From a virus (lineage: Monodnaviria > Loebvirae > Hofneiviricota > Faserviricetes > Tubulavirales > Inoviridae), in IMG/VR virus record IMGVR_UViG_2609460053_000007: 9,340 bases of DNA. One strand, written 5' to 3'. Shown here one piece after another: positions 1,065-9,340 of the stretch. Numbering within the stretch: the stretch's first letter is position 1; every line of letters starts with the position of its first letter. Below the pieces are notes generated by a model. That model searched no databases. It had not been told where the DNA came from and saw nothing but the letters and a program-made list of their open reading frames with translations. A program made the translations under genes and the position numbers.

Positions 1065-2309
1065 TCAGTTCAGGTTGTCCCGGAACAGTTCACCGCTCCT
1101 CGCGGCGCTGCGGGGCGTCGCCCTGCTCCGGTCAACCTTTCTGACCTGAAGCATCACCATAATATCAGTCTTGTTGCTTTCACTGGTACGGGAACCGAAG
1201 AAGCTCCAGCCGGAACTGGCCTTACTGTCTTTCTGTTCAGCAAGGCCACCAAGTAAAATAATATCACCATCTGCAAGGCTGACTTCGGTTGTTACATCAC
1301 GCTTGATAAGGGTTGGCGAGTTATTGACGCCGGTTTCAGTGGTCACAAAGTTGGAAAGCTGCTGCTGAATCTTGAGATCCATTGTCCGACTTTTGATTGA
1401 TGGCGTCACGTTAAACAAAACACCGCTGGAACGATATTCAACGGATTGCGTTGTCGTATTGTTATTCACCGTAACACTGCCCAGTACTGGCACATCAGAG
1501 CCGACTGAAAAAGACGCTGAGGCATTATTTTTTACCCGCAGTCGTGGCGCACTGACAACAGTAAAACGACTGTCGGTTTTCAGCAGATTGAAAATGGCAT
1601 CAATGGAGCCGGTTCGAATATTGATAAAATTATCCAGTCCGGCAGCACCAACTGAAATATTGAATTTATCAGACAGAATTTTAGCCGCTAAAAGAATGCC
1701 GGAGCCGTCAGACTGCGAGGTCTGAACCTCAAAAACATAACCAGAAACAACCACTTCATCACTCATCGTATCCAGCGAAGTGACCAGTGTTTTCAGGATG
1801 GCGATATCCTCTTTCGTACCATAATAAACCAGAATATCACCGGTTCGATTGATGTAGTTGCTTGCCCCTGATGAACCTTTTAGCGAATCGTCAGAAATCA
1901 CGGCTCCACTGTTATTGAAGGAGCCTGAAACGTAGCCGCCAAGAATATCAGACAGGTAGGCAACAGAACGGTACTGAGGCGTATAAGTCCATGTATAACG
2001 TGGCTTAACCGGCTCTTTCGGCGTATAGGGCGCGATAAAATCAACACCCTTTTTCGTCCATATTCGAATGTTCATATTGCCAAGATAACGGGTTACAAAT
2101 TCCCGTTCATCAATATCAGGTGTTAACCTGAATGTAATCATTCGTTCATCATTAACAAGCTGTGGATCTAGCATATACGGGACTTTAAGCACCTCACTGT
2201 AAATAAGAGAAATAGCCTCCGGTAGCTTGACTTTATTTAATTCAAGCTCTGACCCTGCGAAAGCACATGAAGAAAATAGTAGCGTTAATGCGAGTAAAAT
2301 CTTTTTCAT
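1065..2309 (-). CDS. Phage-encoded secretin (pIV-like) for virion extrusion
   Basis: 414 aa; N-terminal signal peptide MKKILLALTLLFSSCAFA with AxA cleavage motif; C-terminal secretin-like region (VVSAPRLRV...DGDIILLGGL...). Last gene of the morphogenesis block, as in Ff phages. Start ATG overlaps the gI stop (TAATG at 2307-2311). Confidence 0.85.
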   Translation of the reverse strand: MKKILLALTLLFSSCAFAGSELELNKVKLPEAISLIYSEVLKVPYMLDPQLVNDERMITFRLTPDIDEREFVTRYLGNMNIRIWTKKGVDFIAPYTPKEPVKPRYTWTYTPQYRSVAYLSDILGGYVSGSFNNSGAVISDDSLKGSSGASNYINRTGDILVYYGTKEDIAILKTLVTSLDTMSDEVVVSGYVFEVQTSQSDGSGILLAAKILSDKFNISVGAAGLDNFINIRTGSIDAIFNLLKTDSRFTVVSAPRLRVKNNASASFSVGSDVPVLGSVTVNNNTTTQSVEYRSSGVLFNVTPSIKSRTMDLKIQQQLSNFVTTETGVNNSPTLIKRDVTTEVSLADGDIILLGGLAEQKDSKASSGWSFFGSRTSESNKTDIMVMLQVRKVDRSRATPRSAARSGELFRDNLN

Positions 2310-3334
2310 TATTTTTTCCCCGTATAAAGCGTCACACGCTCACCATCAATAATTCCGCTCATCAACATCCCTTTGTAATTAAAACTGGATGCAGGAACGG
2401 CACGCAAAACACCGGCACCATTAACAAGAATCACAAACGCCCTGCCTTCACTGGTCATTCTCCCTGATATACGCCACTCGGTTGAAAGTGGCGGTTCAGC
2501 TGGTTCTGAGGGAGTATCTGGTGCTGGAGTAGCAGCGGAAGAACGAAACATGGCCGCATCACGTACATCTGTTGTAGTCAAATCTGGCGAGGGATCGCTT
2601 CGGCCAAACGTGCTGAAAAATGAGTAAATCAGCCAGCCTGACCCGATAAACATCAATGGAAAAAGCACAAGAAAGAACCTGACTTTGCCAGAATTCCAGA
2701 TGCTCTGGCGTTTATCTGTCTGCTTTTCATTACCGTTATTTCCTTCATAACTTTTGTAAAGTTCAAAAATATCAGGGTTATATTTATTGCGATAACTGGT
2801 GACGAGGTTGCTTTTATAGATTTTGTGGCCTGAATATACGTCAATGCAGTAATGATTATTCAGGCCCAACGCTTTCAGCTTGCGCATCCGGTAAGTTGTT
2901 TCTATTTTGTCTTTCAGAAAGCGAGCAATATTAGAAAGTGACTGATTTACAATAACCAAATCACAGCTAATACCCGTTTCAGGGTGCGTAAAATGACGAT
3001 GTTCAGCAATAAATGATTTCTTCTCAGCCGTCATATCCTTATCGCTACCGAAGATTCGCCATGCTTCATCAATAACAATTAAATCACCAAACTGGCAAAA
3101 GCTCCCTTCCCCACCTTTAAAAGGAAAGAAATCTGCTTTAAGCACATCATCATTATCCACAACAATAATTTCTCCCGTTGCATCAGGATAACGTTCGGTG
3201 ATTTTATCTTTTTGTAAACCATAAATGTTCGTCACAACTCTCCGGCCGCTGGTAAATGCCGGAATAATGACATTGCAAACGGCTTCATAACTTTTTCCTG
3301 AGCCGGGTATGCCAATATATGCAGAAATAGCCAT
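2309..3334 (-). CDS. Zot-like assembly ATPase (pI-like)
   Basis: 341 aa; Walker A GIPGSGKS near the N-terminus, Walker B-like LIVIDEAW, single TM segment (FFLVLFPLMFIGSGWLIYSFF) in the C-terminal half. Position between gVI and gIV. Confidence 0.9.
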   Translation of the reverse strand: MAISAYIGIPGSGKSYEAVCNVIIPAFTSGRRVVTNIYGLQKDKITERYPDATGEIIVVDNDDVLKADFFPFKGGEGSFCQFGDLIVIDEAWRIFGSDKDMTAEKKSFIAEHRHFTHPETGISCDLVIVNQSLSNIARFLKDKIETTYRMRKLKALGLNNHYCIDVYSGHKIYKSNLVTSYRNKYNPDIFELYKSYEGNNGNEKQTDKRQSIWNSGKVRFFLVLFPLMFIGSGWLIYSFFSTFGRSDPSPDLTTTDVRDAAMFRSSAATPAPDTPSEPAEPPLSTEWRISGRMTSEGRAFVILVNGAGVLRAVPASSFNYKGMLMSGIIDGERVTLYTGKK

Positions 3335-3337
3335 AAC

Positions 3338-3625
3338 TCACCCTATAACAGGAATACGTCGAATAATAAAACGAGTAGCCATTGCGGAGATAATCATACT
3401 AATCCCCTGTGGTAATTTACTCAGGTTAATGAAGTACCAGAATCCGTCTGATAAATTGGCAAACAGCGATGAGAGATTGCTTGAATCTGGCAGTAACTCA
3501 ACAAGGATTTCAACGAAGCCCTGGACTACAAAATACAGCGCAAAGAATACGACGAATTTAATAATCAATGACCGGAATACAAAACCTAACAAAGTATTTA
3601 ATGCACTAATCAGAATCCCAAACAT
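3338..3625 (-). CDS. Minor coat protein pVI-like (hydrophobic)
   Basis: 95 aa, strongly hydrophobic with multiple TM-like segments. Position between gIII and gI. Weak resemblance to f1 pVI (recalled from memory). Confidence 0.7.
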   Translation of the reverse strand: MFGILISALNTLLGFVFRSLIIKFVVFFALYFVVQGFVEILVELLPDSSNLSSLFANLSDGFWYFINLSKLPQGISMIISAMATRFIIRRIPVIG

Positions 3626-3637
3626 AGTTGCACTCCT

Positions 3638-5350
3638 TTAGGCACTCAGAATAATACGGAGCGCAACAAATCCCCATATAATCAGAAATATGGTTTCTAC
3701 GGCGCTTCTGTTCTGCTCAATTAACGGACAATGGGAGTCAATTCTGTACTGGTGATTAAACACGCTGAATTCAACAACGGGGCAGGATGCTGAACGAGAG
3801 CCGATGTTAAATTCGTTTGTAAAAGGCAACAAATTAATAATTGGCGTTAAAATATCTCTTGCCGTTGGCGTTTCTTCAAGCTCAGGCTCTTTTACACCGG
3901 GATCTTCTCCCAAATCTATATTGCCATTATTTCCAGTGTCAGATCCTGAGTTGTTATTAATGGTAATATCAATATTGACGTCAGCCCCTGCACTGTCAGA
4001 TACAGGTGAAAGCATATCTAATAACGTTGGAGATAGCCTAAGTTCCGACATCGCAGAAGTTACTTCAGCCGGTGAAACCTCTTTAAACGGTAAGCCGTTA
4101 TAATCGGCATTAACGGCAGCTTCAGACCACAGCTCGTTAATCATGTCGGCAAGAAGTGCTGGCGATACACTAACACTATCAAGATACTCCAGATAATCAA
4201 TCATGGACTCAATATTTCCAGCCTCCAGTACTTCCGTCATGGCTTTATATTTGGTATTGGTCCAGATAGTAAGCTCACTCTTTTCATCAATATCTTTTGC
4301 GGTGTAATCCTCTTTTTCAGGAACGGCACAAATCGTCGAATATCCACCATTTGACTGATTAGTCGTTTTACAAGGCGTGTTGTGATACTGATATTGCTTT
4401 CCTGCTGTTAAATAAGCAACGCTGTAATACATGGGAAGCCCTGCTACATTTTCATACATGGGAATACCTGCGGGAAATGAAGATGCGGCCGGGTTGCTAT
4501 ACAAGTGTGTAATCTCAGGTATTTCATAAAATGAGGAAGGATAAGTAAACTTATAATTCTGTTCAGTAAAGGATACATCTCCATTACTGTTGACAACTTT
4601 ATTCGTCACAGTGCGTTCAAAATTCGTTAGTGTTTCAGTATAAGTACGCGAGTTATAGTCATTAAGATAATTTCTGGCAATTTCAGTTGGATTATCACCA
4701 TAGTAATAAATTAGCTCTTTCGAATCCTGATAATAATAAAGTGCATTATCTGGCGTGGAATATCCTGTTTCAACACCTACAACTGGAGAACCCGCATCCA
4801 CATTATTACGACTAACATGAAGGATTACCGGACTTAATTCCTGTGGTTCAAAATTAACGGTTATCGTCTTACTTTCACCACTTTGACCACTGTACGTTAC
4901 TTCATATAAATTATCGGAAATCTTTTTACCGTTAGTCATTACCATTACCGAGCCGTCAGATGAACTCAAAGAAGACGGAACAAAAGATGATACAGCAGCA
5001 GCAATACCCGCCCACGTTGCAACACCGCTCATTTTGTATGATGAGGCAGCAGGCAAGTATTCGGCAGCATTAGCCGCAGCGCGGCCAACAAAAACACGGG
5101 TTGCTGTAAGCTGTGATGCCGTATAAATCGCATCATTGGCAGCAAAGCGACGAACAAGCACCCGGCCAACGACTTTAGGAATAACAGCCCGCGCAGCCAC
5201 TGCTGCAATTGCTGGTACAAATGAATATGAATATCGGGGAAAGGAAACCCAGAGAAAGGAAAAAATAAAGGAATAAACCGTCAGCCTCTTAGCCCAAGAA
5301 TAACGACATAAGCTGAGACGATCCCCCATAAAAGGGAACCCAATTTCCAT
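3638..5350 (-). CDS. Adsorption / receptor-binding minor coat protein pIII-like
   Basis: 570 aa as drawn. Asn/Gly/Ser-rich linker (NNNSGSDTGNNGNIDLGEDPG) and C-terminal hydrophobic anchor (IFLIIWGFVALRIIL), typical pIII architecture. SD GGAG 7 nt before the ATG at 5348-5350. An alternative start at the ATG 5030-5032 (M107) would give a 464-aa product. Confidence 0.75.
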   Translation of the reverse strand: MEIGFPFMGDRLSLCRYSWAKRLTVYSFIFSFLWVSFPRYSYSFVPAIAAVAARAVIPKVVGRVLVRRFAANDAIYTASQLTATRVFVGRAAANAAEYLPAASSYKMSGVATWAGIAAAVSSFVPSSLSSSDGSVMVMTNGKKISDNLYEVTYSGQSGESKTITVNFEPQELSPVILHVSRNNVDAGSPVVGVETGYSTPDNALYYYQDSKELIYYYGDNPTEIARNYLNDYNSRTYTETLTNFERTVTNKVVNSNGDVSFTEQNYKFTYPSSFYEIPEITHLYSNPAASSFPAGIPMYENVAGLPMYYSVAYLTAGKQYQYHNTPCKTTNQSNGGYSTICAVPEKEDYTAKDIDEKSELTIWTNTKYKAMTEVLEAGNIESMIDYLEYLDSVSVSPALLADMINELWSEAAVNADYNGLPFKEVSPAEVTSAMSELRLSPTLLDMLSPVSDSAGADVNIDITINNNSGSDTGNNGNIDLGEDPGVKEPELEETPTARDILTPIINLLPFTNEFNIGSRSASCPVVEFSVFNHQYRIDSHCPLIEQNRSAVETIFLIIWGFVALRIILSA

Positions 5351-5382
5351 AATTCAATCTCCATAATAACCTCAAGTAAAAC

Positions 5383-5401
5383 GGGCGATATTGCATCGCC
5401 C
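5383..5401 (-). terminator. Terminator-like hairpin downstream of the major coat protein gene
   Basis: 7-bp stem GGGCGAT/ATCGCCC with 5-nt loop. On the minus strand it is followed by GTTTTACTT. Ff phages have a strong terminator immediately after gVIII. Confidence 0.5.
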
Positions 5402-5414
5402 ATGAATAATGAAT

Positions 5415-5648
5415 TTATGCGGATTTAACGGTACGCAATACCCAGCGAACGCCAGCGACACCGGCATAAAGTGTTACCAGTGAAGCAGCAACGGCCATAA
5501 TCGCAACCAGAACTGTACTGAAATCAATGCTGTTCGTCAGCGGCGATAAATCAACACCACTTGATGCCGCTCCTTCTGCAGCGAAAGTCGCGCCAGAAAC
5601 AGCCATTAATGCAGGTACAGCCAGAAAACTAACGATTTTTTTAAACAT
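5415..5648 (-). CDS. Major coat protein pVIII-like
   Basis: 77 aa; signal peptide ending AxA (..SGATFA|AEGAAS), acidic N-terminus of the mature part, hydrophobic core (VLVAIMAVAASLVTLYAGVAGV), basic C-terminus (RWVLRTVKSA). SD GGAG 8 nt upstream. Confidence 0.9.
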   Translation of the reverse strand: MFKKIVSFLAVPALMAVSGATFAAEGAASSGVDLSPLTNSIDFSTVLVAIMAVAASLVTLYAGVAGVRWVLRTVKSA

Positions 5649-5682
5649 AACTCTATCTCCATTACATTTTAAAGGTTCGCAT

Positions 5683-5934
5683 TCAAGCAGTACGAACCAT
5701 CTTTATTACCTGTCCCACACCTACAGAAAAAAGCCAGAGCAGCAGGACAGAGCCAAAACCTAATGTCCAGTAATTTCCCATTGCAGAATAATCAATTTGA
5801 TGAAATGGTTCAGAACGTACCATTATTGCCTGACATTCTTTTGCATTGTTCGCATTACATAAATAACCTTCAATACGGTAACCATTTTCAGGAATATGAT
5901 TATCAAACTGAATATCGAAACCTGATGCATCCAT
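5683..5934 (-). CDS. Small protein with C-terminal hydrophobic helix at the pVII/pIX position (putative minor coat protein)
   Basis: 83 aa with C-terminal TM-like segment WTLGFGSVLLLWLFSVGVGQVI. Lies between gV and gVIII where Ff phages encode pVII/pIX. ATG 2 nt after the gV stop. Confidence 0.5.
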   Translation of the reverse strand: MDASGFDIQFDNHIPENGYRIEGYLCNANNAKECQAIMVRSEPFHQIDYSAMGNYWTLGFGSVLLLWLFSVGVGQVIKMVRTA

Positions 5935-5936
5935 AA

Positions 5937-6254
5937 TCAGCCTTTTATTTCAGTAATGCCGCCATCTGATGAAATGTTATAAGTTACTCCTTCCCTCCCC
6001 TCCATTGACCAGACGCGAACATATACAGGTATCTGGACTAACTTACCGATAAAATTATTTGCCTGATTCATTACACCGGCATTAACAAGAGCCTGAGATA
6101 CACGAATAATAATCTGGTCTTGCTTAGTGCCGCCAAAACCATCAGGAATCTCTAAGCCAACACCAATTTCATTATAGTATCCCTGACCATTGACCTTATT
6201 ACGCTGGCGAGCACCAAGCATTTTACCTTTTACAAAAAGACCATAATTAGACAT
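5937..6254 (-). CDS. Putative ssDNA-binding protein (pV-position)
   Basis: 105 aa, immediately downstream of gII and upstream of the coat genes. Assignment is by position and size only; no clear similarity to f1 pV was recognised. Confidence 0.55.
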   Translation of the reverse strand: MSNYGLFVKGKMLGARQRNKVNGQGYYNEIGVGLEIPDGFGGTKQDQIIIRVSQALVNAGVMNQANNFIGKLVQIPVYVRVWSMEGREGVTYNISSDGGITEIKG

Positions 6255-6265
6255 ATCACTCTCCT

Positions 6266-7318
6266 TTAATGCCAGTTACTGGCATGTGAAATACGGTTAT
6301 AATCGAAAATTAAACCTTTCTCATAAACCCATGATGGAATTTTGGCTGGTTTGGCTTCAAGAGTACGAACCAACGGAACAACGTTATTAGAATCCGGTGA
6401 CTCACAATAAAAGTTAATATCTATTCCGAAAGAAAGTAATTCTTTACGGTGTCGGTAGAATGTAGGTTTCGGTAACATCTCTTTCATGTTCGCGCCCTGC
6501 TTCCACAATAAATATGTAGACTGTATTTTTCTTGGGAGATTAATTATTTTTTCATCAGTTAATATAGTATTTTGATTCATTTCTATTCTCCCTACATAGT
6601 CAGAGAATAATTTATTGGGCGTCTCAATATTCCAGCTATTACCAAGCGTAAGATTCAAATCAATTAATTCAGTTGTTCTTAATGTTAATTCAATGCGTAA
6701 TTTATCTTTTGACCAGTCCAGTAAACCAGCTTTAACGAATTCGTCTGCCATCTGGTGCCCTTTTTTGCCAGATGTATGCTCATCATATTTTGAATAAAAT
6801 TTCAGGCTCCAACGACGGGAGTTTTTCCCTAAGTAAACAGTGCCACCTTTACCACAGGCGCGACCGTGGCGAGTTTTAGCTTTAAATTCTGCGGCATATA
6901 ACCATGCGCGGACATTTTCTAATGTTGACAATGAATACATGTAATTGATATCGATGCGCGAGATCTTAAATTGCCCTTCCATGACCTGCCGATAGGATGG
7001 TAGATCATGAGGAATATGCAGTAATGCCAATATTCTGGCGTAAGCTGTTAACACCAACCCTTGCAAATCGTCGGAACCGATAACAGAGTGACCTTGCAAA
7101 AACTTTGATGGATTACCGTCAATGTAGAGATGTGTTGCCCGACCTTCACCATCAGATCCAACAGACCTTACTTTCATTGTGGACTCATGCGAACCGCGAA
7201 CGGTCAACCGTTTTACTGTTTCCCACTCCACTGCACCGTCAGCATCGACGCTGACGACACTACCAGCCGGTAACGGTCGGTGTGTGCAAGGCAGGATTCC
7301 GGTAAACCAGTCGATCAT
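6266..7318 (-). CDS. Rolling-circle replication initiator (pII / RstA-like)
   Basis: 350 aa; N-terminus MIDW... and motif KFLQGHSVIGSDDL resemble f1 pII (MID..., KVLQGHNVFGTTDL, recalled from memory). First gene of the minus-strand block, divergent from the HTH regulator. Confidence 0.85.
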   Translation of the reverse strand: MIDWFTGILPCTHRPLPAGSVVSVDADGAVEWETVKRLTVRGSHESTMKVRSVGSDGEGRATHLYIDGNPSKFLQGHSVIGSDDLQGLVLTAYARILALLHIPHDLPSYRQVMEGQFKISRIDINYMYSLSTLENVRAWLYAAEFKAKTRHGRACGKGGTVYLGKNSRRWSLKFYSKYDEHTSGKKGHQMADEFVKAGLLDWSKDKLRIELTLRTTELIDLNLTLGNSWNIETPNKLFSDYVGRIEMNQNTILTDEKIINLPRKIQSTYLLWKQGANMKEMLPKPTFYRHRKELLSFGIDINFYCESPDSNNVVPLVRTLEAKPAKIPSWVYEKGLIFDYNRISHASNWH

Positions 7319-7344
7319 AAGTAGTCACACCCATCAAAATATGT

Positions 7345-7416
7345 GTCAATAGTCATTTGTGAGCAGATTGAATGGTCACAATGTAATATGCTCAGTTCTG
7401 ACAGTCAATACATTTG
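7345..7416. promoter_or_regulatory. Imperfect direct repeats GTCAATA(GT)CATTTG: candidate operators in the divergent control region
   Basis: gtcaatagtcatttg at 7345-7359 and gtcaatacatttg at 7404-7416. The second overlaps the predicted -35 of the gII promoter. Confidence 0.35.
7380..7408 (-). promoter_or_regulatory. Candidate sigma70 promoter for gII (minus strand)
   Basis: On the minus strand: -35 TTGACT (7403-7408), 17-nt spacer, -10 TACATT (7380-7385). Confidence 0.4.
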
Positions 7417-7489: not shown

Positions 7490-7936
7490 ATGGGCAACAA
7501 TGAGCATGAAGTTATGGCGGACAAACAGAGAGCAGAACGTATCAAAAAGGTAATTCTGGAACACTCGACTTATGAAGAACTGGCCAAGAAGACTGGCATT
7601 AGCGTGAGTACGCTGGTCAGGATAGCGTCCGGCAAAACTGAACCTAAATTCAGTGACATCATTCAGATAGCTAAAATTACGGGTGCAGACTTAAACACCT
7701 TAGCTTATGGCTATGCTCTTGATGTTAAAGAAGAAGCTACCGAGCGGAAGCTAATCACTTCTGCGGATGGATATACTGATGAAGAAACCACTAACGCACA
7801 TAATTTCATCGTGTGGAACATCAGGACACTGGAAAAACAAGATATTCTGGCACTCGCAAGGCAGGTTTCTGCCTTAAGTTCATACACTTACAGTACTAAA
7901 ATGTTTATGAAAAAAGCGGTGTCTGGAGAAGAGTAA
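7490..7936 (+). CDS. HTH XRE/Cro-CI family transcriptional regulator, putative phage repressor (RstR-like position)
   Basis: 148 aa; helix-turn-helix signature EELAKKTGISVSTLVRIASGK plus a C-terminal extension of about 70 aa. SD GGAG 8 nt upstream. Divergent from the replication gene, as rstR is from rstA in CTX-type phages. Confidence 0.8.
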   Translation: MGNNEHEVMADKQRAERIKKVILEHSTYEELAKKTGISVSTLVRIASGKTEPKFSDIIQIAKITGADLNTLAYGYALDVKEEATERKLITSADGYTDEETTNAHNFIVWNIRTLEKQDILALARQVSALSSYTYSTKMFMKKAVSGEE

Positions 7937-8035: not shown

Positions 8036-8458
8036 ATGAGTAGAAATAACGAAACAAGCGGCGTTGAACTGGTTGTCGTGGGCGTATTTGCTTTCTGTCT
8101 GGCAGTTGTTGCCTGGCTAATGAAAACTTTCGATGTTGAATGGCAAACAGCGCTGGAAACTGCGCCTGGCCTGATAGTGTGGCTGCTTGTTGTCGGGGCG
8201 GGGATCTTTTTCGGGATCAAAATGGAAACAGGCCTTGTTCGCTGGGGTGCTCCACTGGCGATCGCCCTTCTGATTCCGGTATTCAAACCAATTCTTAAGG
8301 AAGCTGCCGGAGTTCGTGAAACGGGTGGGCTGGTTTTCGATGATATGGTTTCGTGGTACGGAACTGGCTGGGGAATGTCGTTGATGTTTTTCGGAATTCT
8401 TATCATCGGATACGGGATGCTTTATTGGTGGCACAGAAGAAATTCATATTACTGGTAA
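8036..8458 (+). CDS. Hypothetical integral membrane protein, about 4 TM helices (accessory operon gene 1)
   Basis: 140 aa; hydrophobic segments at about residues 12-29, 45-61, 70-83 and 112-132; aromatic/basic C-terminus WWHRRNSYYW. SD AGGA 8 nt upstream of the ATG. Confidence 0.75.
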   Translation: MSRNNETSGVELVVVGVFAFCLAVVAWLMKTFDVEWQTALETAPGLIVWLLVVGAGIFFGIKMETGLVRWGAPLAIALLIPVFKPILKEAAGVRETGGLVFDDMVSWYGTGWGMSLMFFGILIIGYGMLYWWHRRNSYYW

Positions 8459-8486
8459 TCAATAAAACGTAGAAGAGAGGAAATAT

Positions 8487-8762
8487 ATGAAACTGAATCC
8501 TGAGAAATACAATAGAAATATCACCCTGCTATGTCCTGTGTGCGGAAATACAGAGATGGAACACGAGGAAGAGTCTGAAGTCGTCAGATGTGTAGGCTGC
8601 GGGAAAGAATTCACTAATGATGAGTTAATCCAAGAAAACGGGGTGAGTATTGACGCCCATGTGGATGAGATAAAAGAAGAGTTAACAAAAGATATTCAAA
8701 AACAGTTTAACGACATGCTCAAAAAGGCATTTAAAGGAAGTAAAAATATAAGGATTAAATAA
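8487..8762 (+). CDS. Hypothetical zinc-ribbon protein (accessory operon gene 2)
   Basis: 91 aa; Cys16-x2-Cys19 ... Cys35-x2-Cys38 (CPVCG-x15-CVGCG); acidic middle and Lys-rich C-terminal helix-like tail. Strong SD AGAGAGGA upstream. Stop overlaps the next start (TAATG at 8760-8764). Confidence 0.7.
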   Translation: MKLNPEKYNRNITLLCPVCGNTEMEHEEESEVVRCVGCGKEFTNDELIQENGVSIDAHVDEIKEELTKDIQKQFNDMLKKAFKGSKNIRIK

Positions 8763-9241
8763 TGACAACAAGTGATGCCATCGCTTTAGCTGCGCTTGTA
8801 GTATCGATTTACACTATCATATCATCAGAAGTGAAGTCGAGAAAAAGTGATAGAGAACAAAAGGTTATAAAGGATGAGCAAGACAGATTACGTAAGTTGC
8901 TTCTGGAAAAAGAAACAAAGTCAGCAATTAATGAGATGAAGGCTGAGCTTGGTGCCCGCCTCGTAAAAATAGCCAAAAACAACTATAGACTCAAGATATT
9001 TAATAGAGGGAAAGTTGAGGCTAAAAATATAGAGATTCATTTCCCTGATAACGATGGCAATGAATATCTTTCCATGCATGATGTAGAAGATAAATTTCCA
9101 TATGAAGTATTACACCCGCAACATGGGATTGAAATTTTAGCGGGACTAAGCTTTGGAAGCAAAACTAAATACCGAATAAAACTCATATGGGATGACAATT
9201 ATAAAAAAAGGAATGAAGAGGAGTTTTTCATTTCTATATAA
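8762..9241 (+). CDS. Hypothetical N-terminally membrane-anchored coiled-coil protein (accessory operon gene 3)
   Basis: 159 aa; N-terminal hydrophobic helix (AIALAALVVSIYTIIS), highly charged K/E/R-rich helical region, then a C-terminal domain. Start is translationally coupled to gene 2. Followed by the strong hairpin at 9273-9309. Confidence 0.7.
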   Translation: MTTSDAIALAALVVSIYTIISSEVKSRKSDREQKVIKDEQDRLRKLLLEKETKSAINEMKAELGARLVKIAKNNYRLKIFNRGKVEAKNIEIHFPDNDGNEYLSMHDVEDKFPYEVLHPQHGIEILAGLSFGSKTKYRIKLIWDDNYKKRNEEEFFISI

Positions 9242-9272
9242 ATTGGTTCGCACAATGACGTTATGCTAAAGA

Positions 9273-9309
9273 GGCCGCTGCGGGATACGATTTTCGCAGC
9301 GGCCTTTTC
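9273..9309 (+). terminator. Rho-independent terminator-like hairpin after the accessory operon (copy 2 of 182-218)
   Basis: Identical to 182-218: 10-bp GC stem, 12-nt loop, TTTTC tail, 32 nt after the stop codon at 9239-9241. Confidence 0.6.
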
Positions 9310-9338
9310 AACATAACGAGTCGTACATTATGCGCACC
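9306..9338 (-). other. dif-like XerC/XerD site (copy 2 of 215-247)
   Basis: Identical to 215-247; the window ends 2 nt beyond the XerC arm. Confidence 0.65.
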
Positions 9339-9340
9339 AA

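Follow-up and report, generated by a model that had tools for sequence, protein, structure and literature searches.

Two stop-start overlaps of a single nucleotide lie in a 9,340-nucleotide stretch of inovirus DNA (IMG/VR record IMGVR_UViG_2609460053_000007), the whole of which is referred to here as the window. One of them joins gene I (gI), encoding a Zot-family assembly ATPase, to gene IV (gIV), encoding the outer-membrane secretin. The other joins the gene for a small zinc-ribbon protein to the gene for a protein of 159 amino acids (aa) without family assignment. At each junction, the upstream gene ends and the downstream gene starts within the pentamer TAATG, which is preceded by a Shine-Dalgarno (SD)-like motif lying in the final upstream codons. 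The elements of the two junctions are as follows.

3334..2309, minus strand: gene I, Zot-family assembly ATPase, 341 aa (Pfam PF05707, 2.2e-26; PHROG 197, 8.7e-94)
2317..2321, minus strand: GGGGA, SD-like run in the last gene I codons, about 8 nt before the gIV ATG (duplex with the 16S 3'-end, -5.7 kcal/mol)
2311..2307, minus strand: TAATG, gene I stop and gene IV start (TAA 2311..2309, ATG 2309..2307, shared A at 2309)
2309..1065, minus strand: gene IV, outer-membrane secretin, 414 aa (Pfam PF00263, 1.3e-24; PHROG 1012 'assembly protein IV of M13', 8.1e-138)
8487-8762, plus strand: zinc-ribbon protein of the ECs_2282 family, 91 aa (NCBIfam NF047912, 3.6e-18)
8750..8754, plus strand: AAGGA, SD-like motif in the codons AUA-AGG-AUU (I-R-I) of the zinc-ribbon tail (-6.0 kcal/mol)
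8760-8764, plus strand: TAATG, zinc-ribbon stop and 159-aa start (TAA 8760-8762, ATG 8762-8764, shared A at 8762)
8762-9241, plus strand: 159-aa protein, without family assignment

Both overlaps had been pointed out in an earlier sequence-only reading of the window, and they are confirmed by the letters, by the ends of the open reading frames (ORFs) and by RefSeq/PGAP annotation. In the E. coli prophage that matches at 100% identity, the borders of the coding sequences are 6363..7388 and 5119..6363 for the first pair and 12541..12816 and 12816..13295 for the second. The same reading had correctly identified gI and gIV, as the Pfam and PHROG matches above demonstrate, and had recognized a zinc ribbon in the upstream protein of the second pair, which belongs to the ECs_2282 family. 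Its label of 'coiled-coil protein' suits the 159-aa protein less well than an N-terminal membrane helix followed by a helical stalk and a β-sandwich. Both downstream starts are well supported, since the gIV product opens with a signal peptide, MKKILLALTLLFSSCAFAGS, with no alternative in-frame start back to a stop codon 30 nt upstream, and the N-terminus of the 159-aa protein (MTTSD.IA..AL) is conserved family-wide from residue 1.

The pentamer itself carries no information. TAATG occurs 44 times in the window, as compared with 29.6 ± 5.6 times in shuffled sequences, 2 of 200 of which reach 44; with so many copies and so mild an enrichment, the repeated string alone is uninformative, and the recurrence stressed in the sequence-only reading has no meaning. 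TAATG as a recurrent or shared element is thus rejected, the two sites being independent instances of a generic -1 overlap. No other overlap types are nearly as common in bacteria and archaea as those of 1 nt and 4 nt. Among the ten co-directional junctions of the window, two are at -1, and the others are at +2, +3, +11, +12, +28, +34 and longer distances. The feature in excess of chance is the junction geometry, which is conserved in homologues. A 16-nt near-copy (15/16) of the gI/gIV junction, CGGGTAAAAAATAATG, is found within gIV (1523-1538 versus 2307-2322), on the coding strand and out of frame; it is probably coincidental, about 0.5 chance matches being expected by our estimate for this sequence size.

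The pIV protein alignment was used to fetch 80 loci from bacterial genomes, in each of which the gI stop and the gIV start were located, the start being picked heuristically by signal-peptide score. These loci provide 70 distinct junction sequences; the inoviruses concerned belong to gamma- and beta-proteobacteria, and their pIV identities are 25-100%. Distances from gI to gIV, overlaps being negative, are distributed as follows.

-4 (ATGA or GTGA): 43 of 70
-1: 8 of 70
0: 4 of 70
+1 to +7: 7 of 70
longer overlaps: 4 of 70
probable start miscalls or pseudogenes: 4 of 70

A 4-nt or 1-nt overlap is consequently present in 51 of the 70 distinct junctions. In nine divergent GenBank inoviruses (pIV 25-49% identical), the junctions annotated by the depositors are at -35, -26, -23, -4, -4, -4, +1, +1 and +7; M13 has an overlap of 23 nt and IKe a gap of +2. 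A G-rich SD-like run is located 6-12 nt upstream of the gIV start in most homologues. Two near-identical phages (L008 and L016) carry the natural variant TAGTG by a shared A-to-G change at position 3001, which corresponds to window position 2309; with this single substitution, TAG replaces TAA and GTG replaces ATG, and stop and start are both kept. The copies in Yersinia pestis encode pIV 100% identical and pI 99.7% identical to those of the window. The exact form of the junction varies, yet fusion at the level of stop and start appears almost always to be kept, which suggests selection for a coordinated production of inner-membrane ATPase and secretin.

The tracing of homologues of the 159-aa protein extended to viral contigs, metagenome contigs and genomes. 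Of 92 loci, 85 encode, directly upstream of the 159-aa gene, a protein of about 90 aa with two CxxC motifs that is homologous to the zinc-ribbon protein; in most of the others, the contig stops short of it, or the start or ORF call is ambiguous. The 70 distinct junctions (30-100% identity, not phylogenetically independent) are distributed as follows.

-1 (19 TAATG, 14 TGATG, 1 TAGTG): 34 of 70
0: 13 of 70
-4: 10 of 70
-10: 2 of 70
+1 to +8: 6 of 70
further apart or miscalled: 5 of 70

The distance is between -4 and 0 in 57 of the 70. For comparison, 24% of unidirectional gene pairs of E. coli lie between -8 and +6 (PMC10666635). For each of the two pairs, gI/gIV and zinc-ribbon/159-aa, at least 80 homologous loci are thereby available.

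Apart from its cysteines, no part of the zinc-ribbon protein is as conserved as its tail, AFKGSKNIRIK (coding positions 8727-8759; homologous loci L108-L198). Of 40 distinct homologues, 37 use AGG for the arginine of the tail, while AGG makes up 12% of the arginine codons in the genes of the window. Writing this arginine as AGG builds the SD of the next gene, so that protein and translation signals are superimposed in the tail. Variants in which lysine replaces the arginine mostly have a -4 overlap, and the SD is missing in 8 of the 10 junctions at -4. Each gene pair is presumably co-transcribed; a consensus scan finds no terminator-like site at either junction. The sole promoter-like match of the same kind of scan, at 2335..2308, is rejected as an internal gIV promoter, because its second hexamer overlaps the gIV ATG and it cannot yield a gIV transcript.

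Termination-reinitiation coupling within co-transcribed pairs is probably the best explanation of both overlaps. On terminating at the end of gene I (or of the zinc-ribbon gene), a ribosome would have the following AUG in its P site or close to it, and a part of these ribosomes would go on to initiate gene IV (or the 159-aa gene), probably assisted by the SD within the final upstream codons. The outcome would be coordinated and co-localised expression of two cooperating proteins, in which coupling would tie their expression together without setting a fixed ratio. The partnership of pI and pIV is known from Ff phages, and that of the zinc-ribbon protein and the membrane protein is suggested by their obligate gene linkage; the two latter proteins presumably interact physically. 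The pI of the window carries a Walker A motif (GIPGSGKS) near its N-terminus and a hydrophobic stretch, VRFFLVLFPLMFIGSGWLIYSFF, and the features of the Ff-type pair, namely Walker A and a membrane span in pI and a signal peptide and a secretin domain in pIV, are present. In Ff phages, pI/pXI and pIV constitute one trans-envelope complex (PMC8563730). The pIV of f1 is a 15-mer, the subunit number of pI/pXI not being stated in the same paper, and the periplasmic domain of f1 pI contacts the N0 domain of pIV (PMC8563730), a contact that is assumed by homology to occur here as well.

There are precedents for coupling at such junctions both in the host and in the virus family. In E. coli reporter tests of -1 and -4 pairs, three of five were strictly coupled and one was coupled to about 60% (PMC6728339). 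Coupling collapses once the stop-start distance is about 20 nt, and overlaps are enriched among genes of heteromeric complexes (PMC6728339, PMC10666635). These pairs, at -1 (TAATG, TGATG or TAGTG) or -4 (ATGA or GTGA), share with the present ones the junction geometry, the embedded SD, the E. coli host and cooperating partners (Huber et al., 2019, PMC6728339; Huber et al., 2023, PMC10666635). They differ in that coupling was measured there, whereas the junctions here are known from sequence, and in that pI and pIV are not cytoplasmic subunits able to assemble co-translationally. Genes V/VII of f1 and IKe and genes VII/IX of f1 are classical coupled pairs of the virus family (PMC12548453). Ff and IKe phages belong to the same family as the window and have the same gene order, gene I and gene IV being always juxtaposed. 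In M13, the overlaps of VII/IX and IX/VIII are 4 nt, and in IKe that of III/VI is 1 nt, whereas the gI/gIV form of both phages, given above, differs from the -1 of the window. To our knowledge, coupling between gI and gIV has not been tested in any phage.

Coupling at both junctions, as the sequence-only reading had proposed, is therefore plausible, while its further claim of a fixed stoichiometry is an over-reach, as coupling can saturate and the downstream gene need not track the output of the upstream one. Even when translation of the upstream gene changes strongly, the output of the downstream gene can fail to respond, as in V/VII of IKe (PMC12548453). Coordinated expression is a fair statement, and a fixed protein ratio is unsupported.

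Several points weigh against coupling. Of five overlapping pairs tested in E. coli, one (bioBF) was uncoupled (PMC6728339). Both downstream SDs are of ordinary strength, inside the range of -3.2 to -9.1 kcal/mol for the other well-supported starts of the window, and since the downstream starts have their own SDs, de novo initiation could supply all downstream translation. Co-translational assembly cannot be the benefit for pI and pIV, because the two proteins end in different membranes. The genome is tightly packed (other junctions at +2, +3, +11 and +12), so that tightness may partly reflect genome economy, and the junction counts are drawn from related sequences, so that the events are not independent. 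An explanation built on such points is compaction without coupling, according to which the overlaps would be by-products of selection for a small single-stranded DNA genome or for small mobile cassettes, with independent initiation from each SD. It agrees with the equal strength of both SDs and those of stand-alone genes in the window, with the shortness of all junctions in the morphogenesis operon, with the behaviour of bioBF, and with the range of gI/gIV homologue junctions from -35 to +7, over which function is retained. However, compaction alone predicts a spread of short distances rather than sharp peaks at exactly -4 and -1/0. The zinc-ribbon/159-aa junction is moreover unchanged in chromosomal islands, on which size imposes no constraint, and the prevailing absence of an SD from its -4 variants is hard to square with independent initiation. 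Compaction without coupling is accordingly considered rather unlikely, albeit the most serious of the alternatives.

Coupling might also operate through RNA unfolding, the downstream ribosome binding site being held in a hairpin that is opened only by ribosomes translating the upstream gene, as documented for genes VII/IX of f1 (PMC12548453). In the window, 141-nt folds around each junction have energies no better than those of shuffled sequences (z = 0.06 and 0.64), SD and AUG are mostly unpaired in the centroid structures at both junctions, and Rfam has no match in the window, which makes this mechanism improbable. It is still less probable, to the point of being hardly credible, that one or both downstream starts are mis-assigned and the overlaps are not true gene junctions. 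ORF lists are mechanical, and the start of gene III in this very window is ambiguous (GTG at 5200 called by PGAP versus an SD-preceded ATG at 5350), but the signal peptide starts at the gIV ATG with no in-frame alternative upstream, the 159-aa family is conserved from its first residue, and PGAP calls identical starts. Termination-reinitiation is thus preferred for both pairs.

The description of prophages of the CUS-1 type, to which the window belongs, reportedly dates from 2002, and the two junctions are new instances of a known overlap type in an already known prophage. The window consists of a 9,091-bp unit, of which bases 1-249 recur exactly at 9092-9340 (249-nt terminal redundancy), consistent with a window read past its own end on a circular genome or on tandem prophage copies. 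E. coli chromosomes contain sequence 100% identical to the whole window, where two tandem copies adjoin hipBA, and at least 80% of the window length is found in 86 of 5,426 complete genomes. Gene spacing between the repeats is 9,145 bp in one E. coli chromosome (L001) and about 8,742 bp in Y. pestis. The GenBank phage collection yields no nucleotide match to the whole window, and the window contains no tRNAs. From the 100% identity in E. coli, the tandem copies by hipBA and the pIV 100% identical to that of Y. pestis, the window is a dif-integrating filamentous prophage of the CUS-1/YpfPhi type (PMC4266046). It resembles CUS-1 of E. coli O18:K1:H7 and YpfPhi of Y. pestis in the near-identity of pI and pIV to the Y. 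pestis copies, in tandem integration of the dif type and in a dif-like attP with a perfect XerC arm (PMC4266046). The Inoviridae order gII-gV-(gVII/IX)-gVIII-gIII-gVI-gI-gIV is found on the minus strand with diagnostic domains, and the genes of the window other than the two pairs are as follows.

7318..6266, minus strand: gII (Phage_CRI and G2P_X_C)
6254..5937, minus strand: gV (G5P family, 1e-52)
5934..5683, minus strand: ORF of 83 aa
5648..5415, minus strand: gVIII (weak Coat_B match)
ending at 3638, minus strand: gIII
3625..3338, minus strand: gVI (DUF2523)
7490-7936, plus strand: RstR-like helix-turn-helix (HTH) repressor
8036-8458, plus strand: hydrophobic protein of 140 aa, probably a membrane protein, without domain match

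The ambiguity of the gene III start on the minus strand lies between the GTG chosen by PGAP, which lacks an SD (+0.9 kcal/mol), and the upstream ATG, which follows GGAG (-6.4 kcal/mol); the PHROG 3942 profile aligns to the longer product from residue 28. Terminator-like hairpins stand on the minus strand directly after gVIII (5381-5403) and after gIV (982-1011). The transcription layout of Ff and IKe is alike, with a strong terminator past the major coat gene and another past gIV. Just past the 159-aa gene, at 9245-9338 (identical sequence at 154-247), two inverted dif-like sites surround a GC-rich hairpin. The site on the plus strand reads GGTTCGCACAA...TTATGCTAAAG, and that on the minus strand has a perfect XerC arm, GGTGCGCATAA, followed by TTATGTTGAAA. 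These inverted sites look like the XerCD attP of YpfPhi and CTXphi (PMC4266046), although a spaced 28-nt dif pattern has no match at up to 3 mismatches and the attP reading rests on sequence inspection.

The zinc-ribbon and 159-aa genes (window 8487-9241; loci L108-L202) form a portable, uncharacterised two-gene cassette that occurs mostly outside inoviruses, inovirus core genes being present in only 10 of its loci. The zinc-ribbon protein has two CxxC motifs, a long helix and the conserved C-terminal tail in the alignment and in an AlphaFold2 model (pLDDT 76). In the model, the tail is of low confidence despite its conservation, as would be expected if it became ordered only upon binding a partner. 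The 159-aa protein is predicted to contain one long helix (residues 3-59), whose hydrophobic N-terminal part is read as a putative membrane anchor, and then a β-sandwich (residues 63-158). Its family is large: clustering at 50% identity gives 1,308 clusters for E ≤ 1e-3, or 482 for E ≤ 1e-10, and nearly all full-length members among the 150 best matches are 140-165 aa long. The 159-aa protein has no match in Pfam, NCBIfam, PADLOC or PDB sequences, nor any tblastn match in the GenBank phage collection, and in PADLOC 2.0 it matches no catalogued defence or toxin-antitoxin (TA) model. In the same database, the zinc-ribbon protein matches only a part of the candidate system PDC-S64 (4e-7) and generic zinc-ribbon regions, all weak or sub-threshold; outside the ECs_2282 family, its similarity is to generic zinc ribbons only. 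Literature searches for ECs_2282 gave nothing, and those for filamentous prophages carrying defence systems gave nothing relevant.

YpfPhi of Y. pestis (L028, compared with window 8036-9241) has near-identical core genes and HTH repressor and differs from the window in having no gene for the 140-aa, the zinc-ribbon or the 159-aa protein; all three are likewise absent from several IMG/VR contigs whose pIV is 100% identical. The absence of these cargo genes from YpfPhi agrees with a review in which YpfPhi and CUS-1 are said to carry different ORFs, of no known function, on the attL side (PMC4266046). Window positions 8036-9241 represent an exchangeable cargo slot at one end of the phage. Outside inoviruses, the pair was inspected singly in five distinct contexts, in three of which restriction-modification (R-M) systems of type I or III, Mrr or SIR2-STAND genes adjoin it; examples of its surroundings are as follows.

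E. coli: flanked by a type III R-M system and by ardA/integrase
Proteus: after type I R-M and Mrr genes
metagenome-assembled genome: SIR2-STAND gene and type I R-M system as neighbours
Klebsiella: among toxin-antitoxin genes

A neighbour scan covered 122 ORFs from 33 further non-inovirus loci and gives raw counts without background control. The most frequent neighbour families in Pfam are AAA_21, phage integrase, GmrSD_N, SMC_N/AAA_15, HsdR/ResIII and HEPN. Matches to PADLOC among the neighbours include NsnA, mad3, PD-T4-2_A, type I, II and IIG restriction enzymes, GajA/GajB, a CBASS cyclase with a 4TM effector, PD-Lambda-3_B and AbiLi. Some copies of the pair stand in islands that carry an integrase. 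These surroundings are suggestive of an association of the cassette with defence islands. Two-gene TA and abortive-infection cassettes are alike in combining a small protein with a membrane-anchored one, in obligate linkage, in the stop/start overlap, in mobility, and in neighbours of the R-M, Gabija, CBASS, HEPN and GmrSD types. The pair is unlike known defence and TA cassettes in that the 159-aa protein matches none of their families and the zinc-ribbon protein gives only the weak matches described above. As a tentative possibility, suggested by genomic context, the widespread cassette, whose membrane protein is typically of about 155 aa, might be an unrecognised anti-phage, superinfection-exclusion or TA-like system that moves among defence islands. 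The CUS-1-type prophage found in extraintestinal pathogenic E. coli would then have acquired it as cargo, at the place where YpfPhi has unrelated ORFs.

The stop/start overlaps themselves are of little consequence, being two further cases of the commonest prokaryotic overlap type, and the maintenance of the gI/gIV junction at -4 or -1 in a wide selection of gamma- and beta-proteobacterial inoviruses is a modest comparative addition. The more useful lead is that the cargo pair of a virulence-associated prophage belongs to a large unannotated family, which stands among defence genes at several of the loci examined. This finding supplies a testable hypothesis for the function of the ORFs at the variable end of CUS-1, and if it is true, a defence-like cassette could help explain why the CUS-1-type prophage is retained.

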